A stretch of DNA of 58,733 nucleotides, filler included, from Sphacelaria rigidula (lineage: Eukaryota): NCBI GenBank assembly GCA_964200075.2. It is 9 parts of 9 records of this genome, joined end to end, with 100 filler letters (N's around TTAATTAATTAA, not from the genome) between each part and the next. Parts side by side here need not be neighbours in the genome. Positions count along the whole stretch, not along the records: positions 52,297 to 58,733 come from CAXNAA020020072.1; 8 more parts are not named here. One strand, written 5' to 3'. Below are positions 854-54,779 of the stretch, piece by piece. Both the position numbers and the translations under genes were made by a program. The notes below the pieces were generated by a model that worked only from the letters and a program-made list of their open reading frames with translations, was not told the origin of the DNA and made no database searches. Numbering within the stretch: the first letter of the stretch is position 1; each line of letters opens with the position of its first letter.

Positions 854-901
854 TAAGACGGACCCGCGATCGCAGCACACGTAGAAATGGAAAAACCGCA
901 C

Positions 902-2320: not shown

Positions 2321-2408
2321 CTTCTTCCTCCTCGCGAACTTTCGCCGCCCTGCGCATCTCAATAGCAGCGTCGTTGGCGGCCATGACCTCTACACGAGCG
2401 CTTCGAAC
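2289..2408 (-). CDS. CFAP45: CFAP45-like, internal exon (VRSARVEVMAANDAAIEMRRAAKVREEEEVEAILAYQAMK)
   Basis: tgtaag| acceptor and |gtatct donor, 120 bp, phase 0, charged coiled-coil sequence. Confidence 0.72.
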
Positions 2409-3111
2409 CTTACAATGACAATTTAGTCCATAGTGTATGAGTACAGCCGGGCAACAGACATACGCGCGCACACACACACGCACATTAGCCAGAACCAACA
2501 GCAAAGTGTTTCTGTTGTCGTCTCAGCAGGGCAAACACGTAGCGGTGAGGCCACCGGCCGTAGGTGCTCGTGCATGTATGAACATATCAGCACATGTCAC
2601 CAAATGAACTAAAAAAATAAATAGACGTTAGCAACAATAATAACTACAACTACTACTACTACTACTACTACTACTTCGTACTACTTCTATGACAACAAAT
2701 TGCTAAGCTGGCTAGAATATATAAGAACGAGAGAAGGGTGTGGCGCGGTATTTCGAGTACCCTGTGAATACTCGTGATGTTTTTTCAGTCAACGCTAGTT
2801 CAGGTACAATCCGGAACAGCAACTATTTTTGAATGTCAGACAGCTCATGAGCTACCTGAATATTCCATCTTACTAGCGTACTGATCCGGGCCATGAGCTA
2901 GCTCATTTGGCCCAGCTTTTCATATTCCCTCCCTACAGCGCTGGACGCCGAGCACGCCACGTAGCGCAAGAGTAGCCCTTGGACTTCTCGGACCCCGCTG
3001 TCACGTACTTTGTGGTTTTGGACAACGGATCTTATTAGTAGACTCCTCTTCGATTACTTTTTGGCGGTCAATACCCGCGGTACCGTACCCAAGCTATCTT
3101 TGCAAAAATAC

Positions 3112-3189
3112 CTCTTGCGCCCGCTTGTGTGCGGCAGCCTTGTCTTCATCTGCGTATCTCTCGATGACGGCGAGCATCGCACGGTTCTC
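3112..3189 (-). CDS. CFAP45: CFAP45/CCDC19-like flagellar coiled-coil protein, internal exon (ENRAMLAVIERYADEDKAAAHKRAQE)
   Basis: AG/GT-bounded 78-bp phase-0 exon. Splices in frame to the exons at 2408-2289, 991-902 and 441-379. Confidence 0.7.
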
Positions 3190-3231
3190 CTGCAGCGAAC
3201 AGTGGGGGTCGTCGGGGGCAGCAGAGAGTTT

Positions 3232-3470
3232 CAAGGGTGTGTTGGGTAGGGTAAATACCCGGGTATTTACTCTCCCGAAGTTTGTGTTGCGATAGTTCGG
3301 TCTCCGAATCCTACCCAATTTTTGGGTAACGTTAAGTACGTTCGAATTACTTGGTCCAATATCTGGGTATTGTTGAGTATGATTTCAATGATCTACCCGA
3401 GTTTTCGGTGCTCGGAGTACAATTTCTCAGAATACCTGGGTGTAGGGAAACCATACCCAACACACTCTTG
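3232..3470. mobile_element. hAT-type MITE (239 bp)
   Basis: TIRs CAAGGGTGTGTTGGGTAGGG / CCATACCCAACACACTCTTG. Perfect 8-bp TSD GAGAGTTT (3224-3231, 3471-3478). Internal GGGTA/TACCC motifs. Confidence 0.85.
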
Positions 3471-3639
3471 GAGAGTTTACTGTACGTCATCCACCCGTCG
3501 CAACAGAGGCATGGTGGAATTGCACTTGCTTTTTGATGCTCTTCCTTGGTTTTATTTATAGTGCAGATGATGAGCACTCTGTACCCCTTGCTATCTTCTT
3601 TTGTGCCCGTTAGGTGAGCTTCCTTTTCCACAGCTCCTC

Positions 3640-4066
3640 CTTCTTTTTTTCTTGCAATATTCGTGACTTTGTATTTTTCTTGTTTTTGATTTCGTTATTT
3701 TTTCCCCTCGTTCAGTTTTGAGTTCGTCTGTTCTATTATATTTATGTTCTATTATATTTATCTTTCCCGACCGTTCGCCTTCGTTGAGCTTCCTTTACCA
3801 AACGCTTTTTCGTGTTGCGTGTTCTCTTGCTCTTCAGTTTACTTTATCTGTGCTGTTTTACACATCGTTCTTGAACTTTCCCCCTTCCTTTCTCGACTTT
3901 CCATCGGCGAGTGTTCCCGTGCTCGTAAACCTTTGTTACATCATGTTGTGGACAATGACCATCATGTTGTGGATAATGACCTTGTGACACCATGCTGTGG
4001 ATAATGACCATGCCTGGATCCCCCGGAGATCGGTTAAGGTACGAAAATCAGTCGATCTATCAATCG
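3640..4066 (+). mobile_element. Diverged RTE-like LINE 3' UTR
   Basis: T-rich body, triplicated GTGGAYAATGACC, end CCTGGATCCCCCGGAG...TACGAAAATCAGTCGATCTATCAATC similar to the other (AATC)-tailed copies. Confidence 0.5.
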
Positions 4067-5342
4067 ATGAGTAGTCGAGTACGCGCACCGTACCGCTTAA
4101 ACAACCACATCCAACAAGAACGTTCGTGAGATTGAGAGTGTAGCAATCGATCGAGAATAGACTTTTAACCCTTGTTTGGAATGGGCATCATGCTCACCTG
4201 AAAAGTTACTGCGTGACCCCGATTCCTAACCTGGCGGTCAAAGGGTTAACATTCCGAAGAGTTAGTCGTTGGATATATAGATATATAATCCGGAAGCAAA
4301 CAAACACTGACGTATGATTCTTTGAAGTCGCGATGGGTTAATACCCTATACTCGCATCTCAACGTTTTATTCAGAAGAACATCTTTGGGATATATGGCAT
4401 TCTGCGCGGTATATAGTCGTAGCCTGCCCAACGTCCAGCGGCGTTTTTGATGGGAGGAATGTTCCGATTGTTCATACGCTCATCCCCTTCCTTTTTACTC
4501 TTGGTTCAACCAGACGTATCTTTCCTATTGTTACGTGTTACTGTTTCACTCATGGACAGCGAAGAAATAAACATCGTGTTCCTTACAAAAGTCCACTCCC
4601 AATCGAATCCTCTACTCTCGACCTCAGGAAAACCCTGTTAGCTCGACTCATCCCCGCGGACTAGTCGATGCGAGACAATCCGTCAAGCTTCGTCATTCAA
4701 TGGAATCAACAAGCCGACCAATAAACTCCCTCGGATAAGATCAACGACAATATATGTCGATTGAAATCAAAAGTCATTATTCGAACGCAATGAAATCACT
4801 CATACAATCAAACAAAAGCAAAACAAGCACCGTAGAATTCGGATTGATGCTGATAGCCTTCAAGCAAGTGCCCTCTCAGCGTTTCGCCTTTCTGTCTATT
4901 TGAGCGCCGACTTAAGCTATCTGTCAACCCGAATGTTGCCGATTGTAGAGGAAAAGGTGCCATCTGAAAGTTCCTTTTTCCGGGGGGTTCTCGATCTGCC
5001 TCGGGTTGGAGCTTTGCTTAATAAGGAAACAAAGAATAGCAACAGGGTTGGGGCTTGTAAGCAAAACCGCAAGCTGTATGTGTCAACCATGAGGTTTGGT
5101 CCACGACGTGGAACGCGCGGTACGTAGAAGGGAAGAGGCGTATACCATGGTTGGTATACTCTGAATACCACCCGTTGTGAGGTGGTGCCGGACCTTTTCT
5201 CTGTAACAAGCGAGGCCCAACAGGCACTGCCGTTTATCTGGAGATCTCGACGACGTATTTCTTAGGTACTGTGCAAGTTCGAGCTGTGTTTTTTTCTTCA
5301 AAGCGTTCGCTTCTATTTCAAGAGGTTTTTGGCGTCGATCCC

Positions 5343-5506
5343 GAGTCATGCTACGATAGGGCGGGAGGGGGGGGGGGGGGGGGGGGGGGCGCGCCCAAAA
5401 AAAAAGGGGCGCTGGGGGGCGGAAAACGCCCAACAACACACCGACGCGGCTTTTTNNNNNNNNNNGGGGTGACGGCGGGTCGGTGCGGGGTGGGACGGGG
5501 GGGGGG

Positions 5507-5538
<32 letters not shown>

Positions 5539-5765
5539 AGGTCGATTCCACGAAAAAATGGGCTCATAGGTACGTCAAACGGCCAAACACAATCGCGATA
5601 CGCTTTTATTTGGATGTACGCGGTATCAAGCAGTGTGAATGAGTGTTATTTATCGGGAGCAAGCACGTTCAAACAACTGTTGCTGCTTTCAACGACGATT
5701 CAAGTGTGAACGTCGTGGGAAAAAACGTTAAAAAAGTGCCCCTTTCCCTTATCGTAGCATGACTC
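5343..5765. mobile_element. MITE with GAG...CTC termini (Sola-like), ~410-bp family; contains an assembly gap
   Basis: TIRs GAGTCATGCTACGATAGG / CTTATCGTAGCATGACTC, flanks TCCC/TCCT, interior homologous to 30887-31551. Further TIR ends at ~55-81 and 6538-6571. Confidence 0.75.
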
Positions 5766-6437
5766 TCCTGCTGTCGGAATCTGCTATCTGGTCACTACGG
5801 AAGCCATATTTGATAAATTTATTGTAGTGCAAAATTGATCGATAAAGTAGTTGAGGGGCTGATTGCCTATGGCACCTCACAGTAGCTGGTCCGTTGCGAG
5901 TACAGCTGTAGTAACAATATTGTCGTACCTAGGGTAAACGAACGATAAACACTCGCTGAGGGAAACCTACAAGACAATTATATTCAATCTGATTTTACTG
6001 GGAATCCAGCTCGACCTATCCTGACCTGGTTCTGGATGACACAAAAGAGACCAGGAAGCACTAATATCGATAGCAGCGGTAGTAATGATGGCAGTAGCCA
6101 CAGGAGTCGCGGTTGTGGTAGTGGAGGCCGAACTACCGTACTCCAGTGCTAATCGTACAGGGGCTGTTGCAAACGATAGAATAAGAAAAGTTATGTTTAT
6201 CAAATCACACAAGCACACACATTATTAATGTATTGCAGGATTTATACACATCCCGTGGGATATTTCGCTGTTTTTTCTTGTGCAAAGTGGCGTAAAGTAT
6301 GTTTTCCAACGCAGCGCATGTTTCAGTATCCGATACAGATAGTACACCCCCCCCCCCCCCCCCCCCTCCGCAACGCAAACCCCCCCCTCCGTCCCCTAAA
6401 CACTAGGGCCCGCCGGCCACGGCCCCCCACCCCCCGC

Positions 6438-6537: not shown

Positions 6538-6872
6538 CCAAAATACCCCCCCCCCTATCGTAGGATGACTCTGAAGTACGGACCGGTACGCAACAGACAG
6601 CTGCACAACTGTGCAGCTGTCACGTGATCGTTTCATCGTTTCACCCTTGTGTACAGACAGTAGCAGGTGTACAGCACTTTGATGTCACCCCACTTTTGAG
6701 CTTACCGGAACACCGCATGCAGCACTACAACTGTTCAGGCACTCTCCAGCGCACATCACACCATATTCATCGTAGAGTGCTCGAATGCATAACAGCACAG
6801 CGACAACTACAGCATAGAAATGATGGGTGTGGGAAGCGCCTTGTGCGTTTGACTACATATTCCAAAACAAAT

Positions 6873-7445: not shown

Positions 7446-8149
7446 GCACAGGTCTCCCAAGGACCAAGCAGAGGCAACGCGGACACTTTGTCGTTAAAAA
7501 ACGGTCTTTGCGCCTATCGTGCGCCGAAAGTCGAGTCCTACGACAAAAAAATCAAACAAAACACAAGACCGAAAACCCAAACGATCGCAGGCGAAGCATA
7601 TGTGTAGACCTCACCACCATAGGTATGAAGCACACGTCCCCAGCCCCTGCGAGACCGAGATACTATCTCTACAATCACAGACGCCGACAGCAAGGGATAC
7701 ACACGAAGAAAGGCTACAAAATACAGAAAACGTCGGGAAGGACAAAAACAAATAGCCCGCCTAACACCGCGCCAGAGAGGATGATTGAACCACGCAATAC
7801 GAGGCGCCTCGTACCCAGAGCCCACGGCCCAAGTCCGCGACTCAGTGGGCCAAACAGGGATACCTTTTGTGCGATGTGCGCCGAATTTATCACACGAATC
7901 CATACTCCGGCACGGAGCGCAACACATCCGCCGACTTCGACAGCAGCCGTCCTTCCGGTTCGATACCGCCCGCGATACCACAACGCGTCGGCGTCGACAT
8001 GTGGAGCCAACGAATTTACCACGACCACAGACGGATGTATGATTTGTCGTGACAGGCGGGTAGAAACCGTCACTCCAGCTTCCGGCGGGGCAGGCAATAA
8101 TCCTGGATCCAAACTAAGGTTTCACTTCCCGTCCCCCATTCCGTCCATT

Positions 8150-8222
8150 GTGCTCCGTCTCGAAAGGGATGCGTCGTGAATGGTCGAACGACTAAGGCAA
8201 GCAACAAATGAGTTCGCCCCCC
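8150..8222 (+). mobile_element. C-tailed LINE, extreme 3' fragment (family A)
   Basis: GCTCCGTCTCGAAAGGGATGCG...GCAACAAATGAGTTCG plus C-run. TSD TCCGTCCATT at 8140-8149 and 8223-8232, each preceded by Cs. Confidence 0.85.
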
Positions 8223-8849
8223 TCCGTCCATTTATCGCGGAGTTGTTACACCTTGCACATCAACAGCGCGGACGCTTTCCGTAGACGCCTGGCAAATCCA
8301 CACGACCCGCTATCCCACAGCTAGGCGAAAGCCTCGCGTACCGCCGACGGAACCTCTCTGTCCCCGACCCACAGAACGGGGCATGCCTCCGTGAAATAGT
8401 CCCGCCGAAGTATCTGCACCCTCCGTCCATGTGCTTCGAGCGATCTCGTTGCCCCGAAGGCCGCCTGCACAGGGAGTCAAGAGTTAGAGGTGACGGACGC
8501 GGCACGGACACGGTGGGCTCAATGAAACGTTGAAGACAGACAGAAAGGAATTCTCCTTAGGCGGGGACGACTGTGAACAGCGCAAGTATCGTGTGCATCG
8601 CCGAAGGGGTGGCGCGGATGCATTGGGCATGACAGCGGCGCACGCACAACGTGCGCGGGCCACGACACTCTGTAGCCGGAATGGCAGGTATGAACAGCAT
8701 TTGGTGCGGGAGATGGGCGCTGAAGTACAGAGGTGAAAAGTAGAAATCACGCCATACCACAAAAACGGCGAAGACGAGAAAATATGTGAGTGCGAAGCCG
8801 CGGTTCGACAGAAAACTACTCGCATCGCGAGTCCAATACCACTACCGCG

Positions 8850-11222: not shown

Positions 11223-12365
11223 CACGGGCACCGTAGGTAAGGTACCGTACCGAGCGTACCCCCGGGATTGATCGGGATATTCCATACCGTGGTACGCGTG
11301 GGTATCGTAAGTGTGAGTTTTGAAAATACCTGGTTGGGCGAGTACGGTAGGTATTGAAATTTCGAAATACTGTAGTATCGTCGGTATCGTGGGTGTGAGT
11401 TTTGAACATACCTGATTGAGCGGGTACGGTAGGTATTGGTATCTCAAAATACCGTGGTATCGTAGGTATCGTGGGCATGGCAGCTGAAAATACCCGATTG
11501 GGCAGGTATGGCAAGTACTGGAATCTCGAAATACCATGGTATAGTGAGTATCGTAGGTATGACATTTGAAAATACCCGATTGGGTCGGTACGGTAGGTAC
11601 TGGTATACTTCCTCCGTGCCATAAGTAAAGTCCGTTATGGGGGGCAGATCGTATATCGCCAACGGAGTTGCCCACGATGCTATAGTTAGACTTTTTGGAA
11701 AGCTGATGATGTACCGATGCTCGCCTAAATATATATATATATATATAAATAATTATCGACCTACAACCTTAGAATTATAGGGTCAAACATGGCCACATTT
11801 CGACCAAATTTCGACCATATGTACATTGTCGGCCGAATTTCGACGAATTTGGCGTGTTTATTCAAGTATTTGAAGGCTTCAATGTAAACGAGTGGTTTCG
11901 GACTAGGCGTAGCTATCGTACGCCAGCGACGAACCGGAGAAAAAGAGCCAGTTGTATTTTTTTTCACGATTTTTGCCGTATTTCGGGTTGCTAGGGTTCT
12001 CCTCTGTGTTGGGTTCTCCTCTGTGTTATGGGAAAGGGGTGAAATATGGCCATTTTGAGGCCGGCTGATTTTTTTTCGGCCATTCCCGCACGCTGGCTGC
12101 TGCGCAAACAGGGGGGGGAAAGACGCGATTCAACCGAAAAAAAAACTGAAGACTTGAAAAAAAAACATCGCCTACGGCATTGGACACGGTTAAGGATCCA
12201 TGTGATCATGACGGACTTTGCTTCTGGCACAGAGGAAGTATCGAAATACCGTGGTATCGTAGGTATCGCAGGTATGACACTCAAACATACCCGATTGGGT
12301 CGGTATCGGTAGGGTCTGAGATGTCCGACATACCAGTACCGGGTGCCTGCCTTACCCTATATACC
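11223..12365. mobile_element. Non-autonomous TIR element built of five ~82-bp GGTA/TACC repeats, interrupted by a mariner-type MITE
   Basis: End CACRGGCACCGTAGGTAAGGTA also seen at 25412. Units begin near 11284, 11367, 11448, 11531 and 12246. 12241-12360 is the reverse complement of 25420-25545. Confidence 0.7.
11608..12238. mobile_element. Tc1/mariner-type (Stowaway-like) MITE, 631 bp
   Basis: ~32-bp TIRs CTTCCTCCGTGCCATAAGTAAAGTCCGTTATG / CATGACGGACTTTGCTTCTGGCACAGAGGAAG with TA on both sides. Removing it restores the host repeat unit. Confidence 0.88.
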
Positions 12366-12856: not shown

Positions 12857-12974
12857 GAGTGATGCTACGGTAGGGGTACACAAAAATTTTCTGAGGTTAG
12901 AATGGTTAGGAGCCCTTTATCTCATCCAAAACACGACTGATGAAAATTTGCGAGAGTACGTCAGGATTACTATT
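12857..12974. mobile_element. Sola-like MITE, ~254-bp family, truncated by the scaffold end
   Basis: GAGTGATGCTACGGTAGGGG start; matches the reverse complement of 17360-17467. Confidence 0.7.
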
Positions 12975-13200: not shown

Positions 13201-13328
13201 GGGGGGGGGCGTACTCATTTGTTGCTTGCCGTAGTCGTTTGACCATTGACCACGCATCCCTTTCGAGACGGGGGGGGGCGCACTCATTGTTGCTTGCCTG
13301 AGTCGTTTGAGCATCGACCATGCATCCC
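13201..13328 (-). mobile_element. Head-to-tail dimer of C-tailed LINE 3' fragments (family A)
   Basis: Two copies, each abutting a G-run. Flanked by an imperfect duplication CCAATC..AAAAG.GGGGGGAGG (13179-13200, ~13327-13350). Confidence 0.85.
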
Positions 13329-16380: not shown

Positions 16381-16787
16381 TTGATGGTTTGCCTATATCT
16401 TGCTCTGTGGTTCAGTTTGCTCCGTTTGTTACACCTTCCTTTTTTGTTTTCCTCCCCCCCCCCCCCCCCCCCCCCCCCCTTTTTCTCTCCTTTTTTTCTT
16501 TTTTATTCTTTTTTTTTTTGTTTTGTTTTTNNNNNNNNNNCGCAACCCCACGGGGTTGTTTTTGGTTTTCTTTTTTTTTTTTCTGTGGTTTTTTTTTTTC
16601 CCTTTTTTTCCCCTTCCTTTTTTTTTTCCCCCCCCCCCCCCCCCCGCCTTCTCCCTTCTTTCTCTGGCTGTTTTGTTATGCAAGTATTCACGTTTTGTTG
16701 ACCTTTGGGGATGCGAAATGTCTGTGTTGTGAGCCACGGATGGATATCTGGGGGACTTATCAGTTAATGTGCGACAATCAATCAAAC
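16381..16787 (+). mobile_element. RTE-like LINE 3' UTR with (AATC) tail; low-quality interior with a gap
   Basis: Ends CAGTTAATGTGCGACAATCAATCAAAC. Confidence 0.6.
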
Positions 16788-17838: not shown

Positions 17839-18877
17839 GTGAGAAGTGGAAGGAGTGCCTCCTTGCCCCCAGTGTTTGCAAAGCAAGAGACGCGCACTGG
17901 TCACGTGTTTGTTGCTGAATTGTGTTGTATGCCAGGGGGCATGTCAAAAAACGGGATTTGTGTACAGGTGTTCGTGTGTTTATTTACGGTTTGCGTGTAC
18001 AATTCCGTAGGAAATGTACCAGGTACTTACAATAGATGTTCATTTGTTCCACAGTCGCCAACCTCATCTTTCTGTGGCAGGGTGCGTAACAAGATTTTGG
18101 AATTCGGAGAATTTGATTTTTGAGATGTGTCTTGAACTCCAGGTTCCTGACATACTCCTTATTTAACAGCTGTTACTTACTGTTGAGTATACTGGGAACC
18201 TCCAGTTTGAGATATAGTTCTATCGAATAGACGCTGCTGATGTTTCTTTGACTATCTTTGCGCCGTGTCACATTTGTCGGGTGATCGGGGAACCATATCA
18301 ACTTTAATATGATCATATGGATCTTCTTCTTGCCATTGATCATCCTCCGACGAGTAGGGCTGACCGTGGGTACCGCAATGCTTTTGCAAGTGACAATGAT
18401 TGTGATTTCACGAATGATCCACCCTGGCGGCCAAAAAGGACTAGGGTTTTAGCTCTTTGACCGCGTGAGTGGTGGGCCACAGTAATGCTTGCGCGAGACG
18501 CTGATATGTATGATATATGTGACCCGTCACGCTTCCCGCCTCCATCCCCCCCCCCCCCCCCCCCCCCCCCCACGCGGGGGGTGTGTGTTAAAATATTGTC
18601 AAGAAAGAGAGAGAAGTTAACACAAAATCTTTTGGGGGGGGGGGGGGGGGGGNNNNNNNNNNGGCAAAAGTAATGTTTGCGGGGGAGGCGGTTATGGATA
18701 AGATTTGTGGCCCCCCCCCCCTCCCCCCCCCCCCCCCCCCCCCCCCCCCCCGCCTTACAAGGTGAGGGTTAGGTATAACAGTAGTGAAATGAAGCAGAGT
18801 CATGATCCAAATCAGTCTCGTGAGGGAGGGAGGGAGGGAGGGAGCCACGGTACAACAGTTTGTGCGATAATATGATG

Positions 18878-19111: not shown

Positions 19112-19420
19112 AGTGGTGAGACACCCACGAAGTAGTGTAAGCCGTGGTTGTCTCTTGAAATGGCGATACCAGGAAATGAAGGAACTCAATCGAGGCTTTT
19201 ATGCTCGTGCGAGATAATCAGTATGCTCCGCTCGAACAATCTCGGCAGGATGCAGCTCACTCTTCATGCTACTCGCTCGCCCAACACATCATCGCACTCT
19301 GCGCTTGGTGCTTGATTGCGAGCCTGGTCCGGCATAAAAACAGCTTGCTCCGTCCCGTCTTTTTGGGGATGCGAGGTCAACGGTCATCTGACTACGGCAT
19401 GCGAGATCACGAGTACCCCT

Positions 19421-19505
<85 letters not shown>

Positions 19506-19511
19506 CCCCCC
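19112..19511 (+). mobile_element. Family B element, 5'-truncated, ending GAGTAC plus a long C-run
   Basis: Homologous to 43862-44162 and the reverse complement of 42410-42700. The upstream flank is C-rich. Confidence 0.85.
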
Positions 19512-25552: not shown

Positions 25553-25930
25553 CGAGTCAAGGGCTGCCAATCGGAGAATCCTGTCTGCTCATATCGGTTG
25601 TTGATTATGTCCTTAATCGGTTGCTCTGCGGTGCCCACTGGTGTGTATGTGTATCTACTCTGCTGCCCTGAATCCCTTGGGCCTGTTTCTTTTTTTTCAT
25701 GGTTTTATTGTATTGTATTTTATTTCATTTCATTTGCTCTTGACTCTCCTCTTCTCCTTTTCTCTTGTTTTATTATAGATCAGCCCTTCCTTTCTGTGCT
25801 TTGCTTCTGTTCACTTTTTTATTACGTTTTTTTATTACGTCGTTCTGTTCGACTTTTTTTTTTCTCCTGTTCCTTCTTCCTTTTTTCAGCGAATATCTCA
25901 GTCTTGTTTCTCCCTAGATACGTCCTTTCA
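25553..25930 (+). mobile_element. RTE-like LINE 3' UTR
   Basis: Closely similar to 1450-1880 (GCCAATCG.AGAATCCTGTCTGCT...CTGCTGCCCTGAATCCCTTGGG). Confidence 0.8.
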
Positions 25931-25986
25931 CATAGCGTATCCCCGTCCTGTTTCGCCGTCTATGGAGGGGGCGGGGGGGGGGGGGG

Positions 25987-26048
25987 CGTATTCATCCGTT
26001 TCTTCCCTTCGTCGTTTGCCCATCGGCCACGCACCCCCGTCGAGACGG
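25987..26048 (-). mobile_element. C-tailed LINE 3' fragment (family A), error-rich, at the scaffold end
   Basis: Degenerate match to 13210-13271, next to a G-run. Confidence 0.65.
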
Positions 26049-27569
26049 NNNNNNNNNNNNNNNNNNNNNNNNNNNNNNNNNNNNNNNNNNNNTTAATTAA
26101 TTAANNNNNNNNNNNNNNNNNNNNNNNNNNNNNNNNNNNNNNNNNNNNGCAATTGGTCCTGTGCTTCGTCTTTGTTTGCTTTCTTAGCCGTCGGGGGGCG
26201 AGGGGGGGAGGGGGGAGAGTTACTTAATCCTGTACATGAACAAATATATGAAATGAGATATAAATAATAAAATGAACTAAAACATACTCCATATAAAAAA
26301 ATTAAAATTCGTGTTTATGAAGCTATAATTCTTCGCATACCTCTGGAGCAAAGTAAGGCCAAGTAATACTTAAAGATTTAGGCAATACATTGCACATCAC
26401 ACTTCCATGACAAGAACAAGACCAGACAAATACCACAATGCTCTACAATGCTTGCTCAATCAAGCTAAACGCAATTATATGCACCGTCAATTTGCGTTCA
26501 ATGTGCGTCGCATCTTGTAATGCCAGATGGGACCAACAATCATGGGCGCTACCTCACCCAAGTCTACCCAAAATGGCTATATATTGAGTGTTCCTTGATG
26601 AGAAAAAAAAAATCCTACGACCGCCGGAGGGGGGAGAGGGGAGGGCAGGGGGGGTGTACATATAGTCTAGGAGCTTTGGGGGGGGCACTTCTTTGTCATT
26701 TAAGACGTTTAGCTCCTCGATGTGAGGGGTCATACTTTTTTTTTTTAATCTTTTTTACATTTTTGAAGGGAAAATATGCCCAACAACGCAATTTTCTCGG
26801 CTCCGGCGGCGCTCCCGCGGGGCCCCCTCACCAGCCGGGGGGGACCGTTGGCGGCTCGCGGCTCCGCCGATTGACTGGAAAACAATCGATGTACTGGCCA
26901 CTGGCGCGGCCAGTTTAAACTTAACTGGCCCGAACAGCAAGTTCACAGCCCTAGTCGTAAATGTTGAGGTTGAAGTCGCTGATCTCGTCATGCTATCAGT
27001 GGTCTTCGTCACAATTCTCATCCCTCAGAACATCCGATGTTGAACTACCCTCGCCACCATAAGAAGCTCCGACTGCTTGCTCGATTGACGTAATATTCAG
27101 AGAGTTAGACGTCCTTCCAGAGTAGTGGTCGTAGAGCGGTAAGATGGACTGCCAGAGTTATGTTTCTAATACTCCTTCCCAAGGGACTCTTTTTTCAATT
27201 TTTCTTTGATGATAATACCTGTAAATAAACGCTCTTGAACCGATGGTACGCAAAACGAATAGTTTTGGTTGTTTGCGAAACATCCGACAGTGTTGTCGTT
27301 CCATTTAGTACGGGATGTTTCCGTTGATGCTTGAGTGCGGTAGACGATTAATGAAGAAGACCACAATTGCCGCAACTTCGCTTCAACGAGCCTTCGGCAG
27401 GTTTTCTTCCATTAGAATACAGCGTGAGATGTTCAGGATAGCTCTGCTGTCACGCTCGGAGATGTAACTTTGCTCAGGAATATAATGAGCTGTGAGTTCT
27501 GGGGGAATGCCCGTTTTTATGCAGTATATTCTAAAATACTCCGTAATGTATTAACCTCCACGGTCTGAT

Positions 27570-27638
27570 CGTCTCGAAAGGAATGCGTGGCCAATGGTCA
27601 AATGACTAAGGCAGGCAACAAATGAGTACCCCCCCCCC
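27570..27638 (+). mobile_element. C-tailed LINE 3' fragment (family A) inserted in the copia integrase
   Basis: Interrupts the RLRTDR-GG motif. Imperfect TSD CCTCCACGGTCTG (27555-27567) / CCTC-ACGATCTG (27637-27648). Confidence 0.85.
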
Positions 27639-30079
27639 TCACGATCTGTCCGTAGGCGATGTGTACGAAGTCCCAGAGGAATAGCCAGAGCTTTCATGAA
27701 ACGACATAGCGTAGCTGACATTTCGTCCTTCGTTTTGATAAAGTAGACTAGCTTGAGTCGCGTGTAATGATCCGTAAATTTTGCCATACAACGGTAACCT
27801 CTCACTACATTAGGTAAAATAGGGCCTGGCAGGTCAGTGCTGACCAGTGGCAGTCGCTCCGAAATCTTGGTGGAGTTGAGGTCTTGGGATGATCCTGCTG
27901 TGTGTGCACTCTTGTTAATCTTTCGGGTTTCACTAGGTGACATCTCCGAGTTGCTTACGCCAGACGTCTGCTCCCACCGTAGTGAAGATAGCTGTCGAAC
28001 CTTCAGTCCTCATGTCTTGAATTATGTCCGCTGCAAGAGCGGTACCGACGCCCCTAAGCTCCCCTGATTCAACGGTAGCTGTGCGTGCCGAGCTGTTGTT
28101 GAGGGTGCCCAATTTCCAAACAATCATGCTAATATAGTGGAGTGTTCCGTTGCAATCAATACTGATCGGTACTTTGAAGTTCCCAAGGTCTACGTGGGAG
28201 ATAACGGGGAAAGCGGTTGAAACACTCGTCAGTGCTTCTACAGGCGAGAACAGATGTTTCCCCAGACTTGGGATAATCACGGCAGGAAGACGAACAGAGC
28301 GTCGCCGGTTCCCCTCGGAATCAGTGACGATGATGTGGATAACCCTCTTGTAGTGTCATATAGAAGATCATGTCCAGCAGTGAGGATACTCATTGGAGAG
28401 TGAAGCTTCACACACTCGACAATTTCTTGTTCGATGTTGGGCAACAACGGGTTGTCGATGAAGCGCACAGTTAGCCACTGTCCACCGCTATCTTGAAGGG
28501 AATCTGGTCGTGTGCACAATGGTTGTCGGTGACGTGTGAACCGGAGAGAAAGGCAAACCCCATGCCGTTTGGTGGTGGACATGTATCGGTCACTGTTCAA
28601 GCTGAAGGCATGGAAATTTGTTGACCATGATTGTTCGATGATACGGTCGCTGATGTCGGATCGGTGGTGGCAGTGCTACTCTGGCGTTGACGTCCGTCGA
28701 AGTTGTTGTTGCTGTTGTTGCCGTTGTTCCTGTTGTTGAGGTTGTCGTCGTCGCTGCACTTGAAGTTGCGGTAACGAAGGTTGCTGCGACGGCGATAGTT
28801 GTTGCTTCCGGTGTTGCTGCTCATGCTCCCCTTGCTCAGTTGATTTCTACACTCGGAGTCGTCGTGTTCGTCTGTGATGGAAACTGCACCATGTTACAGA
28901 TCTTCTCGCACTACTAGATTGTGCTCTGTCCGAACAGTCACGCGCTTGATGGCCTGACTTGATGCAGGAGTAACATTTTCACGAAAGTTCGAGGATTGAT
29001 TCAAAGAGTTTGGCAGTGATGCCACCAACATCGCTGAATCACGGTCCTACCATCTTCCAGCAGTAAATTTGAGCGCCATGCGGTTAGAGTACATGTTGCG
29101 CATTGTCGATTCTATATCCACGATGCTGAAGTCTGGGTCGCGTTCAGTGTTGTATTTGATCTGATCATAATCACCGATGGTACCTTCAATGACCATGCCA
29201 GTCAATCGCTCCTCCGAGATAACTTCACCCATGCGTACAAGCTCATCCCTGAGCTGGTACACCTGCTCAAGAAATACATCAGGATGTTGTTCTTGTGGCA
29301 TGGTGATGTTACCCAGTTGTCTCATTAAAGATTACGTCTTTGCTCCGATGAATTTTGATATTTAGATATCAAACCTCCCCAAGCATGTTTGCCGTTTGAC
29401 TTCTCGGAATCCTTCGACTGAAAACTCAAAAGTACACTTGCCGCTGCACCAGCTATCGACAGATGCCAGACGTTGAAAACGTGTTCATTATCCATGTCCC
29501 AATTTTCTATTTCACGCACGTTCGAAATTAGCCTCACGTGTGATGCTAGGCTGGGATAACCAGCCATTTCTCCGGCAGGGTGCTGGACTTGATTGGTGGT
29601 TGCAGTCGCACACGCCGCCGCTGTCGCCTCGCTCGTAGCGGTTACCCCTACCGTTGGTGAATGCGTACGACCGGGCGGCTGCTGGCGGCTCCTGGGACGG
29701 GTCCCGATGGGGCTTGTTCTCAGTGTCGGATCTACCTTTGAAAATAAATATTTAGAAATTTTCGTGAGGCGTTCAGCCCCTTAAAGGATATCAGAAATCC
29801 TTGGATGAGCCAAACGAATGATGGCGCGCGTAGAGCGGGTCCACTCGATGAACTTCGCACCGTCTAACTTCTGTATACTCTTGGTGAGCTGCGTTACAGA
29901 TGGCTCTCCCGAATCATCCATCTGCCTCAAGTCATTCGTAAATTATTTTTTTCACACCTGTAGATCTTGTGAAAGGATCTGGTTCCCTAATCTTCTGGCT
30001 GTCGCTGTTGTGACGACCTTGATGAGACGTCCCGTCGCTCGTACTGACCGACGTGATCGTGAATCGAGGACTGATAATT

Positions 30080-30886: not shown

Positions 30887-31551
30887 GAGTCATGCTACGA
30901 TAGGCAGGAGAGTGCTTGAGTCCACGAAAACTGGGCTGATGGGTGCGTCAAACGACCAAAATAACACAACATTCAAGCCTATGTAATCAATGGTTGACTC
31001 GACACGACCGAAATAAAAAATGCGGGAGCGATGCTACGGTAGGGGTTGCACTTTTTGTTTTTGGGCCTCGTTTTTGTTGGAGCCTTAATATATGGGGCTT
31101 ACTGTGCAACCCAAATCTCCGGGGATAGGACAAGGAGATGCACACAGGGGCCTTTTCGTGAATCGGCATCATTTTCAGTGTTTTTCAAGTGAAAATGATG
31201 TCGATCCTCAAAATGATCCGCGCAACACCCCGAGAAATATTTTCGCTTTCAAAGTGCAACCCTACCGTAGCATCACTCTGCGGCTAGACAGCGAAGTAGT
31301 CCACCTGTAGTCCACCTGTAGTGCCGCAAAGTGACCATTTTGACAGCCTCGATTGGTCAAAAAGGTCATTGCGTGCTTGTGGTGCGCTTGAATTGGGGTA
31401 AAAGCGGTGCCATGCAGTATGAATGAGCGCTATTTGTCGAGAGCAAGCGCGTTCGAACAACCGTGGGCTGCTTTCAAGGATGACTGAAGTGGACTTTCGT
31501 GGAAGAAAACGGCCCAGAATACCCCCACCCACCCCTATCGTAGCACGACTC
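30887..31551. mobile_element. Sola-like MITE (~410-bp family) carrying a nested MITE
   Basis: TIRs GAGTCATGCTACGATAGG / CCTATCGTAGCACGACTC, flanks TGTG/TTTG, homologous to 5343-5765. Confidence 0.8.
31026..31278. mobile_element. Nested Sola-like MITE (253 bp)
   Basis: ~29-bp TIRs GAGCGATGCTACGGTAGGGGTTGCACTTT / AAAGTGCAACCCCTACCGTAGCATCACTC, duplicated flank TGCGG. Confidence 0.88.
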
Positions 31552-38417: not shown

Positions 38418-39069
38418 CTGTATCCTTTCCACGACCGAGGCGTTGAGCCATTAGTTAATCCCGCCCGTTCCTCCTCTTCCCTGATTTCCATGATTATTGT
38501 GGAATTTCACGCTCTATAGCTGAGTCTCTCATGTGATGTGATGAGGGGGTTTTGTCAGGTGCAAATTATCCTGGTTTTGCTGGTCTTTCATATTTTTTGT
38601 CATTTCTTCAAAACAAGACGGACCGGATGGAAGGCGCAAACGTGTGTACAGAAAATGTCTGTTTGTGTAATGGGCATTTTTTTTGTTCATCTTTCAAATG
38701 ACAATGCCGTAAAATAGGCCGCATCATGGATTCGGATGGATCGCCTTGGCAGTTTTTCGCAGTGTCCACAAACTGCACAAAACCAAGGAACGGCTACGCC
38801 TTGAATAGTCCGAACGTCGGAGATGTGCCTTTCGTGCTTCTTTTAGGGGTATTTTTTTTCCCTTTCAGGTCCGCAAGACAGGCAGAGCTGTCAGAGGTTT
38901 TACTGTGGTTTCGGGGAAGCAAAGAGTTATCTTTGTCCCGTTTCAAAGTAGGTCTAAATGAAAATTTTGTTAGAAGACGTTTCAAAACACCACCGTCGTG
39001 TTGTATAAATGTGGTGTGGTGGATAGTGACTCTTTTCTCGAGGTCGGGGGGGGGGGGACGGAGGTGGTG

Positions 39070-39122
39070 GGGGGGGGGGACTCATGATCATGCAGGCCAG
39101 AGTCATAAGACCGTTGCCCCCG
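39070..39122 (-). mobile_element. Family B extreme 3' end with C-run
   Basis: Reverse complement CAACGGTCTTATGACTCTGGCCTGCATGATCATGAGTCCCCC. Confidence 0.7.
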
Positions 39123-39222: not shown

Positions 39223-39408
39223 GGATGCAGCTCACCCTTCATACGACTCGCCGAACACATCACAGCCCTTCTCGCTTGGTGAATAAGTGCGAGCCTGGTC
39301 CGGCGAAACCTGGCGTGCTCCGTCTGGGCTTTGTAGGGATGCGAGGTCAATGGTCTTATGATTATGGCATGCATGCTCATGAGTACACCCCCTCCCCCCC
39401 TCTCCCCC
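39223..39408 (+). mobile_element. Family B 3' portion ending GAGTACA plus a C-rich run
   Basis: Homologous to 19248-19420 and 44000-44162. Confidence 0.85.
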
Positions 39409-42320: not shown

Positions 42321-42409
42321 GCGATATGTCCGTCGTTGTGATGTACTTGTGTATCAGTGTTCTCATTCCCGTCCGACCTTGTCGACATGCGTATGGGGGG
42401 GGAGGGGGG

Positions 42410-42967
42410 GGGGGGCACGCATGATCCGGCATGCCATAGTCCCAGGACCATTGACCTCNNNNNNNNNNGAGCACGCCGGGTTTTCGCCGGACCAGGCTCG
42501 CACTCAATCACTAAGCACGAAGCACCGCGGTGTGTTCGGCGAGTCGCATGAAGGGTGAGCTGCATTCTACAAAGATTGTGCGGCCTGAAGCGTATTGATT
42601 ATCTCGCATATGGATGGCAGTCTTCAACGAGTTGCTTCATTTCGTGGTATCGCCACTTCCAGAGACAGTCACGGCGTATACGCCGCGTCATGGGTATCTT
42701 GCCATTCAAACACTGCGCAGTACGGTTATCCCCATTGTGCGGAGTCGAGGTTCTCCCACGCCGCAAAACATGATCTAGCTCGACTACCATCATGGTTGCC
42801 GCAAAAAAACCGCAAGCACGCAGAAACGAGCATCGGTACCCTGGTTGCCTAGCTTACGCAGTGAATGGCGTGTTTCACAGCGTCATCTCCAATAGACGTC
42901 AACCCCATTGGGGGTCCGCCCTTACAAAGCCGGGACGGAGCACGCCGGGTTCCCGCCGGACCAGGCT
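42410..42967 (-). mobile_element. Family B element, apparently full length (~560 bp, non-coding, SINE-like; 10-N gap)
   Basis: Starts AGCCTGGTCCGGCGGGAACCCGGCGTGCTCCGTCCCGGCTTTGTA. The same block recurs near the 3' end, then GAGGTCAATGGTC...CATGCGTG plus a C-run. Confidence 0.85.
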
Positions 42968-43861
42968 AACATGTGGGGGGCGGAGAGTTGTAATCGTAGT
43001 GCGTGGTTTTATCAGGACAAGTGCCTGCACTGCCAAGTCGGGCTCATGGTAAATAGTTGCGCTCGTACCTGCAATTCATCAATAAGAATTATTTGCCCTC
43101 GCCGTGTCGCCGTCTTTAACGTGCCGCTGACCCCCTGAAGTTGTGGAGAATGACTTGATCCCTGAAGGCTCCCGATGGACGGCATGAGCGTGTGATCAAT
43201 GGTGAGGCGCGCAAAACTCAGTGCTCCCCTTGTTACCCCCCCCCCCTTCCCACCACCCTTACCGTGTCCCGACTTACCGACACACGAACGGGGTCGGGTA
43301 GCAGGGTTCGGACGGAAGGAGGCTTTACTGGCGGCAATCGTGCCCACTTCGGACTCTGAGGAAGAACATATGTTGCGAATCATGCGCCTTGCGGACGAGG
43401 GTGGAGACGAGGACTGTGTGTGCTCTGTAGTCTTGCCAACGCAGCCGACCTCAGGTGAGCAGGGAATCAGCAGCAGCTCGTTTTCGTTGATGTTTCATGA
43501 GTTCCACGGCGGGCTGAGGAGAGTAGCAGCAGAGTCTTCTGCTGCCTCCTGTGCGTCACTGCTGCAAGATATAAGTTTGAAATGAACACGTTATCTTGCT
43601 TGTTTGTGCCTGGGTGTTGTGGCACAAACGAGCATGCCACACCGCACTTTGGTGTGTGCGGAAAGTGTGACGCATTTGCCATGCTCTGGGTTTAATCATA
43701 CCGTACGGGTTAGCCTTGGCACTTGTGATAACAGATATCGACGTTTGATCAGTCGTGAACGAATACATCGCGTTTTTTCCCCCTTAAAATTCGTATCGTT
43801 GACGCGTATCCTTTGTACTATTAACTCCTGCCCCCCCCGATACCCCCCACCGCCATTTTGA

Positions 43862-44162
43862 TGGTGAAACATCCATGATGCAGTGTGTAAGACGTGGCTG
43901 TCTCTGCAAGTGGCGATACCAGAGAATGAAGCAAGTCACTCGACGCTGTCATCCAAATGCAAGATAATCAGTACGCTTCGGGCCGAACAATCTTGGTAGT
44001 GTGCAGCTCACCCCTCATGCGACACGCCGAACACATCACGGCGCTTCGTGCTTGAAGCTTGATCAAGAGCCTGGTCCGGCGAAAACCCGCCATGCTCCGT
44101 TCTGGCTTTGTAGAGATTCGCATCACTGATCGTATGACCACGGCATGCAAGATCATGAGTAC
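43862..44162 (+). mobile_element. Family B element, 5'-truncated
   Basis: Homologous to 19112-19420, ends CATGAGTAC, C-rich flanks on both sides. Confidence 0.85.
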
Positions 44163-45035
44163 ATCATCTCCCCCATTTATGGAATAAGGGGTACGTACTT
44201 GAGTAGTGAAGTGAAGCAGGGTTCAGATTACAGTCTGGTGGATAAGAGGGTTGATGCAGTCGTTGTAAAATTTGTGCGAGAAGCTCGCATGTGTACCTGC
44301 AAGTAGTTTTAAGGAAATCAACTGACTGCATGTTCACTGAAACAGCATTAGTTCAAGGAAAAAGGGTACTGGGGCACTAGCAAAACTGTCGAGACCAACC
44401 GATACATTGCTATGCAGTAGCGTACAAACACTATTTGCTGTAGCGTTTTTCCCCCTGTCCCGTGAGGGGTGCATATTCAGCAGATGGTCAAGCAGCAAGT
44501 GAGTAGTTCTGCATTCAACGTGCAGCAAAATTTCTCTGCGGTTTTACAAATAGTCTACGGCAGGACATCAGCGTCTTGAGCTGTTCAGTACGCACAGATG
44601 CCATGCTCTTCACCTGTGAAATGGTGACGGAGCAAACGAGTGAAAGGAGTAGCAGCAAGAAGTAGCGTGGATGTGAGTCACGAATGATCGGTCGCCCGTC
44701 CTCAATAAGGGTAATAATATGAGTAGCTAGAAGCTTTGAAATCGAGCACGGTGCCTGGCCCCGCACCAACTACATCCATGAGCATCAAACGTATTAGATT
44801 AACCTTCCAAAACGGACATGCTTCCAAACGATCTGTACCTCAGCCCTACTTGTCTTGAACCACATATCTTCTCCAAGATCTGTTGCCTGTAACCCCCTCC
44901 CCACGCACACACACACTCCCCTGCTCTTCTTGAACACGTTTTTGTCGTCAATCATTCTATAGATATTGGGAAACGTTCACCCTTGAGCAGACATGCGCAA
45001 TTTGTGTACCCCCCCCCTCCCCCCCACATCCGCCA

Positions 45036-45659
45036 TGCTCCGTCTCGAAAGGGATGCGTGGTCAATGGTCAAACGACCAAGGTGAGCAACAAATGAGTAC
45101 GCCCCCCCCCCACATCCGCTTCCGTCTCGAAAGGCATGCGTGGTCAATGGTCAAACGACTACGGCAAGCAACAAATGAGTACCCCCTCTCCGCTAGGGGT
45201 AGTTTCCCCCTGACACCTTCGATCTTGGCACGATCCCCCCCTCTTTATGTTCAAGATTGTGGACACCATAGCGGCCACAGCTGTTGTACTGAGCGTTGTA
45301 TCAATTACCACGCATAGTACGTGCGTAAATAGGTCATAGAAAAAAACTGTAACATCCGCCCCCATCCCTTCCCCGTCTCGAAAGGGATGCGCGGTCAATG
45401 GTCAAACGACTACGGCAAGCAACAAATGAGTACCCCCCCTCCGCTAGGGGTAGTTTCCCCCTGACACCTTCGATCTTGGCACGATCCCGCCCTCTTTATG
45501 TTCAAGATTGTGGACACCATAGCGGCCACAGCTGTTGTACTGAGCGTTGTATCAATTACCACGCATAGTACGTACGTAAATAGGTCATAGAGAAAAACTG
45601 TAACATCCGCCCCCATCCCTTCCCCGTCTCGAAAGGGATGCGCGGTCAATGGTCAAACG
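45036..45659 (+). mobile_element. Cluster of four family A LINE tails; the last three are part of a 251-bp tandem repeat
   Basis: CCGTCTCGAAAGG at ~45040, 45122, 45373, 45624. The first copy has a 15-bp TSD CCCCCCCACATCCGC (45019-45033, 45105-45119). Confidence 0.9.
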
Positions 45660-52296: not shown

Positions 52297-52571
52297 GGAA
52301 ATGCACGACGTGAACGAAGGTGGCATGAAATCGTTTGATGCATTAGACAGTGGGGAGAAAACGATGGCTGTACTAGGAGATAGATGGTGGCCAGAGACGG
52401 CGCAACAGGACAGGGATAAGATATGTAAAAGGATTTGTGTAATATATGGAAGAAACGTTATGAACGCAGGAATGTTGAAGGTGCCTCTGTTAGGAGCAGA
52501 AACGGTGCTCCGTCTCGAAATGGATGCGCGGTCAACGGTCAAACGACTGAGGCAAGCAACAAATGAGTACG
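52297..52571 (+). mobile_element. C-tailed LINE (family A), longest fragment, showing the ORF C-terminus
   Basis: With one frameshift reads EMHDVNEGGMKSFDALDSGEKTMAVLGDRWWPETAQQDRDKICKR/LCNIWKKRYERRNVEGASVRSRNGAPSRNGCAVNGQTTEASNK* (TGA 52564-52566), then only GTACG before the C-rich target. Resembles the C-terminus of abundant brown-algal LINE ORFs, from recall. Confidence 0.8.
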
Positions 52572-52580
52572 CCTCCCGCC

Positions 52581-54779
52581 TAAAAAACGGAATCGCTGTT
52601 CGCAACGTTGAGGGGGGTAAACGGGACCAAGTGACATTGCGGGTGGTGATGATATATACACCCTTCTTCTGCAGCCTCATGGAGTCACGAAGGTAGTTGT
52701 AACCAGGTCCTAAGCAAAACACTCCTGTGCTTTGGGCATACACTTCGAAGTCTTCTTGCACTTGACGTACCCTGGCTTGAAGAAATGTAGAAGCTTAACC
52801 TGGGGTACTTCACCATAGTAGAGGCCATCTTGGGACTTTCTACCAGGGTTAGCCGTGGTAGCAGAACGATTCAATGCGTCTGCTGCCCAACGGTACGATT
52901 CAGTCCACACCCTGGCCGGAACATTAACATCGTACAGTATCTGCGCCTGAATTAGTGCAGCCATAGCGGCCTGCTCAACCATTACTATCGCACTCTCGGC
53001 CACACCGTTATACTCAGGACTGTCTGGTGGGGTATACTCCTGTCTAATACCTCGTGTCCTACCCAGGTCGCTGAAAGACCCAGCAAAATCTACACCACCG
53101 TCCCACCTCACAGTTTCCACCACCGAGGGAATGCACTTTGCTCCTACATCTACGAGGTACTCCTCGGATGCTCTCCTAGTGTCAGACGTGTGTTTACCAA
53201 AATACATCCAGATTTTCCGCGAAAAATCGTCCAGAACCAGAAACGAGTGCTTCATACCACCCATACTCTCAACTACCTTTGGCCTGAGCGCATCCATGAA
53301 CACTCGTTCAAACAGCTTTTCTGCTCTAGAGTTGGTTGAAGTCGGAATGGGCTTTCGCGGCCCCGTGGCCATGGAGCACCCTTTGCACTCCTTCAACTTT
53401 CCCACCAAAGTCACGCCCCGCTGTTTTGTGGTTCCTGCAGCAAGCCCTTATGCAGGTCGTCATGAGACTGATTACATAGATTAATGTTCACCTGATCGAG
53501 GTTGATTTGCATCGTTCCATGGGCGAGAACAGCATTGGCAGACTCATCGTGGCCAACTTTGCGATCCGTCGAAGTGGTTGATGGTGAAAATCGACTGGAG
53601 AACATGATGTCATTCCCTCCTTCCTTTTTGAAAAACACTCCCCTTTTATCAGGCAAAGTGATCACAGTTCCTCTCTTCGTCACACTCACCGGCAAATCAT
53701 GTTCAACGGCCACACTCTTTAGGGAAAACAAATTTACGTCCAACTCCGGGAGATGCGCTACGCTGTTGATACTAAAAGTCAGTTCATGATCGTCACCAGC
53801 CATTGATACCAAGAGTTTGCCAAAACCTGGTGTCGGTACCTTATGGCTGTTTGCTACAGTGATCGACACACCCGTGGAAGGCTTGTAATCACATATTCTC
53901 TCCTTCGATGGAGTCATGTGGCATGGCGCTCCGCTATCCGCTACCCAAAACTCCTCACTCCCTTCATCTAGAAGTGGGCGGTCATCTTGTACACCGTCTG
54001 CTGCGAACGCGTGGCCACCAGTCTGAGTCTCCGTTGCAACGTGTCCAAAATCTGCGGGATCCTTAAAATTGTCCGATTTACACACAACGACCATCTTGTG
54101 AAACCCCTTCGGAGCATCCTTTGCCTCCACATTCTTCACAAATACGTTCAGGGCATTCCGATTTGAAATGACCGGTCTTCCCACACTCGAAACACGTGAG
54201 GATCTTTCTTTCATTTTCCTGTGTGCTTATTTGACTACTGCCGCCAGTATTACCAGTCGTACCGCCGTTACCCTGAACCTTGCTAATACTATGTGTTGTC
54301 GCTGACGTTCGCAACCTATTTCCACCCCTTCTACTCTTACCCTTGGGGGTGGAGCTTCCTGTTGCCCGTGTAGAGGGCATGGTTGTGATCTGCACTACGT
54401 GAACCACCTGTTTTCTTGGGCAACATATATTTATCTTTCACGACGGCTCGTGTCTTATCCGTCTGGATAGTCGGCTCAAACCGTAATCGATGTCGTACAG
54501 TGGTGTATTCAGAGGGAAGTGAATTAAGAAACTTGTCCACGACGACGTTTTGAGCAATCTCCAATCCCAGCGACCTAGCATGCGACTGCAACAACTGTAA
54601 TCGGATCCAGAACGGATCAGTGTCTTGACCCTTGCTGTAGTTTGGGTTGTTGAATCCGGCCAAAACGTCCATCTTTGAGCCTGATGTTTTCGGAGAAGAC
54701 TGTCCACCCAAAGCACGCCATGCTATAGAAGGTGATCGCGACTCGAAACAGAAGTGTCAGCCGACCCTATCCTTAACAG
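52581..54779 (-). mobile_element. Decayed Ty1/copia element: gag, zinc knuckles, protease, integrase
   Basis: KFLNSLPSEY gag, CFECGKTGHFKSEC, WVADSGAPCHM, CKGC..VFMD..VLDDFSR..VRWDGG..YTPPDSPEYNGVAE. Frameshifted. Confidence 0.92.

Follow-up and report, generated by a model that had tools for sequence, protein, structure and literature searches.

The 3' terminus of most LINEs is a poly(A) tail or an A/T-rich microsatellite. In L1, an A-tail is set on a T-rich nick, and the target-site duplications (TSDs) start with As. The LINEs of the RTE clade, which Malik and Eickbush are said to have described in 1998, reportedly combine APE and RT in a single ORF with an unusually short 3' UTR and a simple-repeat tail, and are said to have SINE-like partners with which they hold a common 3' end.

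The closest described elements have been curated in Ectocarpus. In supplementary file 1 of a 2025 Genome Biology paper on Ectocarpus TEs (PMC12477816), RTEX-1_Ec32 (5867 bp, best blastp RTEX-4_NV) is entered with 'single EN-RT ORF; (C)n 3'' and a TSD described as 'C-rich', and the table of that work gives '(C)n termini/TSD' for RTEX-2_Ec32, the best blastp notes for the RTEX elements being 'RTEX-4_NV / RTEX-1_BF'. The same table contains RTEX-N1, of 607 bp, with the remarks '60 bp 3' end 83% RTEX-1/RTEX-2' and 'can be present in tandem', as well as RTEX-N2, of 188 bp, and has the Ectocarpus RTE-1/2 elements ending in (CAA)n. In the available portions of the main text of PMC12477816 the common 3' end is given, and not the tail, a 5-nt UTR, mini-copies or a priming model. 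Saccharina has been reported to have an RTEX-1 (PMC4421812). In the UnaL2/UnaSINE1 pair, as summarised in PMC3747384, the partner shares the 3' end of the LINE, and a role in pairing or slippage at initiation is ascribed to the terminal simple repeat. The literature searched contained nothing relevant on poly-C LINE tails (a poly-C mention in PMC5381506 refers to internal L1 3' UTR tracts), the combination of 'brown algae' and 'RTE-X' gave only PMC12477816, and no discussion of the insertion mechanism proposed below was found in any of the papers searched. For RTE-X LINEs of brown algae, the table of PMC12477816 already records a (C)n 3' end and C-rich TSDs, and since these basic facts stand in a curated Ectocarpus table, the surprise for specialists is limited. 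What is new here is a member from another genome, the exact 5-nt UTR, examples of TSDs and a class of mini-copies.

The window analysed is a stretch of 58,733 nucleotides from Sphacelaria rigidula (GCA_964200075.2), composed of nine scaffolds of 6437 nt each with joints N44-TTAATTAATTAA-N44. Within it, positions 52297-52580 very probably constitute the 3' end of a 5'-cut, frameshifted brown-algal RTE-X-type LINE, with a single APE-RT-CCHC ORF, the terminal order TGA-GTAC(G)-(C)n and a proposed G/C-primed insertion.

Coding capacity and 3' end of the LINE

Of the LINE ORF, the window copy retains no more than the final 270 nt (52297-52566, + strand, matching the homologous protein P0154), that is, the C-terminal tail past a CCHC-type motif, which precedes the tail region; it is cut by the scaffold start, a Pfam search on its 91-aa translation gave no match, and the domains are known from relatives. 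Among these, P0154 (1360 aa) carries PF03372, PF14529 and PF00078, corresponding to Exo_endo_phos and RVT_1, in a profile search for longer proteins. The external contig L002 contains an uninterrupted ORF (754-4992, 1412 aa), terminating at the family TGA, with Exo_endo_phos at residues 221-447 (E 6.6e-13) and RVT_1 at 793-1042 (E 1.1e-30). In both L002 and P0154 an APE-type endonuclease lies N-terminal to the RT within one ORF, and no other sense ORF of at least 200 aa is present in L002, a contig without the 5' end of the element. The best solved-structure matches of the L002 ORF are L1 ORF2p (E 3e-22) and then R2 proteins. The LINE nature claimed in the first-pass annotation is borne out by these tail-carrying relatives, in which the RT-encoding element expected upstream of the tail is present.

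The named homologues belong to Ectocarpus sp. and Sphacelaria rigidula. Two Ectocarpus homologues, P0161 and P0157, are 57% identical over 99% and 71% identical over 69%, respectively, of P0154 residues 700-1360. Taking into account the shared features, the published table and these close Ectocarpus homologues, we infer that the family would belong to RTE-X, and it may be set, by description, beside RTEX-1/2_Ec32. The likeness, as far as the entries for these elements go, lies in the brown-algal host, the single EN-RT ORF, the (C)n 3' end, the C-rich TSDs and a very high copy number; the present family differs in coming from another genome and in not being identical, the recovered Ectocarpus gene models showing 57-71% identity at the protein level. 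With the RTE clade in general it has in common the APE and RT in one ORF, the very short 3' UTR, a simple-repeat tail without poly(A) and partners with a common 3' end, whereas the C-homopolymer tail, the module inside the ORF and the CCHC-type motif before the tail set the Sphacelaria LINE apart.

Seven loci came from one metagenome scan, and a scan of a prokaryote genome collection gave two contigs with the LINE tail, L008 and L009. These are filed in bacterial MAGs (one titled Sulfitobacter sp., the other 'uncultured bacterium') yet carry a eukaryotic LINE tail, and are apparently algal contaminants of these bins. A 19-mer from the LINE tail had no matches in viral contigs.

The first-pass annotation took the terminal TGA (52564-52566, + strand) as the ORF stop on the basis of the longest copy. 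That copy is a frameshifted relic of the LINE, its TGA frame being interrupted by stops upstream while the adjacent frame is open for 91 codons; the shift is due to a single base after 52434 which, in the DNA alignment, the metagenome copies L001 and L002 have and the window copy lacks. The TGA frame is identical to residues 1318-1360 of P0154 in 32 of 43 positions, and the open alternative frame, P0001, matches residues 1272-1322 of the same protein. Because of the frameshift, the longest copy alone cannot show that the TGA is the stop, and the claim stands for the family through the intact homologues. The full-length homologues P0152, P0153 and P0154 all terminate ...NGAPSRKGCVVNGQMTKASNK, and these proteins and L002 end ...ASNK-TGA-GTACG-C(8-19) and then diverge. 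Judged from such homologues, the TGA is the true stop, and the 3' UTR of the LINE amounts to ~5 nt; in the window copy this entire UTR, delimited by comparison with L001, L002 and other external loci, is GTACG (52567-52571, + strand). In the alignment it is followed by the degenerate C-run CCTCCCGCC (52572-52580, + strand) and then by unrelated flank.

An end about 5 nt past the stop, with no poly(A), had also been claimed, and it held in 4/4 external loci that include the 3' end, all diverging right past the C-run, and in 21/21 database proteins. The loci, L001, L002, L008 and L009, read AACAAATGA-GTAC(G)-C8..C19 (C9TC9 in L008), followed by unrelated sequence, and the three-way alignment of the window copy with L001 and L002 diverges only beyond the C-run. 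The proteins are those that carry an alternative-frame RQATNEY-like peptide and continue beyond it; all of them show a proline-rich continuation, encoded by the C-run, with at least two prolines within the next five residues in 20/21, and then become divergent. No A-run of the L1 poly(A) type follows the element in any copy with a visible 3' end, and the full-length copies do not run past the C-run into a conserved UTR.

The alternative frame is widespread in databases, P0001 having 454 matches (E <=1e-3) among 1.84 billion representatives. Many public gene models (P0002-P0151) translate this frame of the last ~50 codons across the C-run into poly-proline; it is preferred by gene callers because it is without a stop, and it is open in many copies.

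Copies, target-site duplications and C-runs

With 52297-52580 as query, blastn recovered all ten places listed in the first-pass annotation, on six scaffolds, and two weak matches besides. The common 3' end claimed for them, AACAAATGAGTAC(G) plus a C-run, is found far above chance (the 14-mer AACAAATGAGTACG, at <=2 mismatches, matches 7 times, whereas 100 shuffles average 0.39 and never exceed 2), and GAGTAC(G) leads into a C-rich run in each copy with a visible 3' end. The ten copies exist, although not all of them are independent. The 62-nt mini-copy at 45121-45182 (+ strand; blastn 45121-45185; TSD 45108-45120 / 45183-45194) lies in unit 1 of a 251-bp tandem duplication, and 45373-45433 (+ strand; blastn 45373-45439), in a unit 98% identical, and 45624-45659 (+ strand), in unit 3 and cut by the scaffold end, are within the same duplication and thus not separate insertions.

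The other mini-copies on the + strand are 8150-8216 (67 nt; blastn 8150-8225), with a TSD at 8133-8149 / 8218-8233 that reads CCCCC(AT)TCCGTCCATT; 27570-27629 (60 nt; blastn 27570-27636), with a TSD at 27555-27567 / 27637-27648; and 45036-45101 (66 nt; blastn 45036-45110), with a TSD at 45015-45033 / 45102-45119 made of a C-run plus ACATCCGC. On the - strand, the 62-nt mini-copy at 13210-13271 (blastn 13201-13271) is placed inside the C-run of the next copy upstream, with C-runs as its sole flanks, and a diverged copy at 13279-13327 (blastn 13270-13327) stands head-to-tail with it. A further diverged copy on the - strand, 25987-26048 (blastn 25978-26048), is cut by the scaffold end and has a C14 run at 25973-25986; directly after this C-run, at 25923-25972 (- strand), a 43-nt fragment of the LINE interior is observed (query 95-137, 86% identical), followed by divergence, which may be a rearranged or template-switched copy.

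It had been stated that these copies have variable 5' ends, and this was not confirmed. Copies start at query positions 209, 210, 213, 214, 214, 214, 214, 215 and 226 (blastn), clustering at 209-215 in eight of the nine copies besides 52297, with two of the four that start at 214 cut by scaffold ends and 226 corresponding to one diverged copy. The five copies that are both independent and complete measure 60-67 nt and start within 8 nt of one another. Only 52297 is longer, at least 275 nt and itself cut by the scaffold start, and in the external copy L008 the truncation falls at a different point, 336 nt. Variable-length TSDs and 5' truncation thus both occur (copies of 60-67, 336 and at least 275 nt), with truncation points that cluster. 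The start of the mini-copies coincides with the onset of the homology between the LINE and a non-coding partner family, TGCTCCGTC. Head-to-tail arrays are present at 13210-13327 and 45036-45182, and tandem copies, with tail-to-head joints and C-rich spacers, also appear in other contigs of the same organism.

TSDs of 12-19 nt, C-initial and abutting both ends, were found in 4/6 independent complete mini-copies, with identity in 15/17 columns for the copy at 8150, 18/19 for that at 45036 and 11/13 for each of those at 45121 and 27570, a small sample of four in which the last two are imperfect. The remaining two mini-copies are flanked by C-runs only. At the composite 13210-13327 array, and likewise at L008, the TSD candidates were too weak to count, and among the 15 joints listed for the Logan contigs that cover 42469-45659 there was no clean empty site for 45036 or 45121.

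As to the Cs themselves, the copy at 27570 has seven surplus Cs (27630-27636) between GAGTAC and its TSD. In the copies at 8150 (C5 upstream, C6 downstream) and 45036 (C7-10 on both sides) no tail of their own is visible, and L008 has C9TC9 behind it, its 5' homology boundary lacking a C-run. Since some copies hold Cs without a counterpart in the TSD copy upstream, the element also has its own (C)n tail, and the C-run is partly target and partly element tail. The earlier statement that the element runs straight into Cs is therefore right in that a C-run follows, and needs amending in that, beside target Cs, the element contributes its own.

In the window, C/G runs of at least 8 nt number 37 against ~1.7 in shuffles, the longest being 44 and 29 nt, and A/T runs of the same minimum length number 40 against ~1.7, none of them above 12 nt. 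As A/T runs are also enriched, the richness in homopolymers is not specific to C/G, though only C/G runs exceed 12 nt. Insertion of C-tailed elements would explain why C/G runs are so strikingly frequent and long in this genome, and probably also the breaks in short-read scaffolds. All the 10-N gaps examined, and several scaffold ends, are bordered by long C/G runs (5367-5538, 16454-16645, 18546-18751 and 42395-42415), and sequence is partly duplicated across 10-N gaps (repeat families D13 and D19), the assembly breaking at C/G homopolymers.

Another repeat family in the window has an internal C-run: it ends ...TTTCGTGGAA..., a C-rich run and TATCGTAG(C/G)ATGACTC, and then diverges. Its 16-mer, with <=3 mismatches, has 8 matches against 0.28 expected, at 66-81, 5750-5765, 6556-6571, 31263-31278 and 31536-31551 and, on the - strand, at 5343-5358, 12857-12872 and 30887-30902. 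The LINE in L002 is inserted in an internal C-run of this kind. The sequence TATCGTAGGATGACTC, found after some C-runs, was considered as a LINE 5' end and rejected, there being no extended homology downstream; because conserved sequence lies upstream of the C-run, it belongs to the end of a different repeat family. Besides, TCCG(T)C recurs just after C-runs (8223-8229, 45115-45119, 45189-45193, 6367-6371, 6388-6394 and, on the - strand, 39058-39068), and is similar to CTCCGTC at the 5' boundary of the module described below; in this small sample, its recurrence may reflect a target preference or microhomology.

The 3' module and the non-coding partner family

A 64-nt 3' module (52507-52570, + strand), overlapping approximately the last 20 codons, is common to the LINE copies, the mini-copies and a family of non-coding partners. 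With an nhmmer profile, the window yielded 15 copies of it (ten LINE-type, five partner-type) and the external loci a further four. We interpret it as a discrete 3' module of ~64 nt within the coding part of the LINE.

The partners are ~300 nt long and non-coding, and their homology to the LINE is limited to the last ~64-75 nt, with none further upstream. Behind one of them, ~300 nt (19114-19416, + strand), more than 90 nt of C tract (19417-19511) reach as far as the scaffold end, against only C6 upstream. A second full element occupies 43862-44162 (+ strand). Another, at 42404-42693 (- strand), has a 10-N gap inside it (42459-42468) and the end ...ATGCGTG + C12TC8; that at 39226-39386 (+ strand) is cut by the scaffold start and ends in CATGAGTACA plus a C-rich run; and a partner-type module at 39080-39122 (- strand), cut by the scaffold end, has a C11 run at 39069-39079.

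That this family shares only the 3' module is the best evidence here for a recognition signal inside the coding sequence, and the first-pass placement of the RT signal there thus receives indirect support. It would follow from the overlap of this 3' signal with coding sequence that the last ~20 codons are under double constraint. Since the partners share a specific 3' module, recognition seems to be 'stringent', and not relaxed as in L1. The Ectocarpus RTEX-N1/N2 elements, according to their table entries, are alike in that homology to the LINEs is confined to the last ~60-100 bp and in that tandem arrangements occur, as with the 64-nt module and the arrays described here, and they differ in size (607 and 188 bp, against ~300 nt). 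In UnaL2/UnaSINE1, as outlined in the source cited above, the signal is a stem-loop of the 3' UTR, whereas here it would overlap the coding sequence.

At the protein level, a G[CR]VVNG island is found 4-10 residues before the stop in 20/113 homologues, and 25 before it in one read-through model; it is kept even at ~40% identity, while the preceding residues are variable. At the RNA level, a hairpin GGUC-N4-GACU with variable loops is predicted in the module. In the alifold prediction, 1/15 pairs is compensatory, with a covariation term of +0.36, and neither this covariation nor the z-scores of the single-sequence folds of the module (-1.17 to +0.33) are significant. A search of the whole window against Rfam at gathering thresholds gave no matches, no known ribozyme or tRNA-like family thus accounting for the module.

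In L004 (2440-2646), a relative with 29% identity, the end ...TGATGAGT is followed by (CT)9 and then by its own 5'-truncated copy placed head-to-tail, which suggests that the tail repeat may be swappable while the module is kept.

Proposed insertion mechanism and its alternatives

It is proposed that the RT would bind the ~64-nt 3' module that overlaps approximately the last 20 codons, while the endonuclease would nick the bottom strand beside a G-run, equivalent to a C-run on the element strand. The freed ...GGG-3' end would then pair with the C-run at the 3' end of the RNA and prime cDNA synthesis, and a second nick 12-19 nt downstream would give rise to C-initial TSDs. Slippage, or the register of pairing, could vary the length of the C-run from ~5 to more than 90 nt, and the C-runs of earlier copies would become favoured targets, leading to the head-to-tail arrays. 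C-initial TSDs are as expected if the bottom strand is nicked where a G-run has its edge, by analogy with the A-initial TSDs of L1. Priming by a C-rich RNA end on G-rich DNA, as a GC mirror image of L1, had been suggested in the first-pass annotation; the suggestion is reasonable and would fit these TSDs. The likeness to mammalian L1 includes a homopolymer tail, TSDs beginning with the tail base, insertion into earlier tails and heavy 5' truncation, the difference being that C/G is used here and not A/T, with neither a polyadenylation signal nor a 3' UTR. A C-homopolymer tail together with C-initial TSDs offers a natural test of tail-target pairing in TPRT initiation.

The C-run could, however, be purely target DNA, if the RNA ended at GUAC(G), the endonuclease preferred C/G tracts and the RT started without pairing, as R2 can. 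Such an origin would suit the copies at 8150 and 45036, in which the duplicated TSD takes in the C-run and leaves no surplus, and also the insertions located within the C-runs of earlier copies or of a different repeat family, but it is made improbable by the seven surplus Cs of the copy at 27570, by the partner at 19114, with more than 90 Cs behind and six in front, and by the Cs behind L008, which has no C-run at its 5' homology boundary; moreover, the Ectocarpus curators score '(C)n 3'' within the consensus (entry in PMC12477816). It is hardly conceivable that the C/G runs are sequencing or assembly artefacts, such as the poly-G calls of two-colour chemistry at read ends. Many of the runs do adjoin 10-N gaps or scaffold ends, but assemblies are expected to break at high-copy repeats and homopolymers, and an identical junction recurs in four unrelated public contigs and 21 database gene models, the runs lie in the interior of scaffolds with TSDs beside them, and they have been recorded independently in the Ectocarpus curation, to judge from its table (PMC12477816). 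G/C-primed insertion with an element-borne C tail is the reading that we follow.

A different question concerns the pile-up of mini-copies at the module boundary, behind which a short template, or microhomology at the CTCCGTC that recurs in targets, is possible. According to the first of these explanations, the 60-67-nt copies would derive from a discrete short template, and not from random 5' truncation of LINE copies; this template could be, for instance, a 3' module that remains bound by the RT once the RNA has been processed or degraded, or else a dedicated non-autonomous mini-element, and head-to-tail multiplication would be possible. The five complete copies that begin within 8 nt of one another, at the point where LINE/partner homology sets in (TGCTCCGTC), favour such a template, as do the 1-2 extra bases at the 5' junctions (CA, T, AT), expected from copying to the end of a template, the tandem joints in other contigs, and the two scaffolds that break exactly at the boundary (26048; 45624 onward), as would be expected at the branch point of a genome-wide repeat. 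Nevertheless, the pattern is measured in the few copies of the window only, and the size class may be partly one of ascertainment, given that copies well under ~45 nt escape detection and longer ones break short-read scaffolds. Furthermore, many contigs continue upstream as LINE at 45036 (loose-end consensus, X4 and X6, agreement 0.47-0.52), and L008 is truncated at 336 nt. On this balance, a discrete short template appears rather doubtful.

Returning to G/C-primed insertion, these elements can tentatively be brought together in a joint reading that we consider possible, with somewhat less than even confidence. The 3' end would act as a compact cassette, consisting of the ~64-nt RT-binding module, which doubles as approximately the last 20 codons, ATGAGTAC and the homopolymer; initiation would be the G/C mirror of that of L1; the module alone would be sufficient for retrotransposition; and the arrangement would extend across a wider clade, with slippage-expanded tails and a swappable tail repeat. 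If this were true, the 60-67-nt retrocopies containing the module only would be among the smallest LINE-dependent retroposons, slippage-expanded tails of more than 90 nt would seed long G/C tracts across brown-algal genomes, and the G(C/R)VVNG kept in relatives of ~40% identity would be the coding imprint of the module.

The practical value is mostly one of annotation, in that tails, mini-copies and partners can be masked as RTE-X-type retroposons. Remains of another retroelement adjoin the LINE tail, where a Copia-type LTR retrotransposon is recognised at 52710-54226 (- strand) by Pol_BBD (E 4e-16) and by rve (E 6e-4, under the Pfam cut-off). Elsewhere in the window, an 82-bp tandem repeat comprises four units, 66-84% identical to the first, at 11297-11624, with a related copy 700 nt away at 12241-12305.
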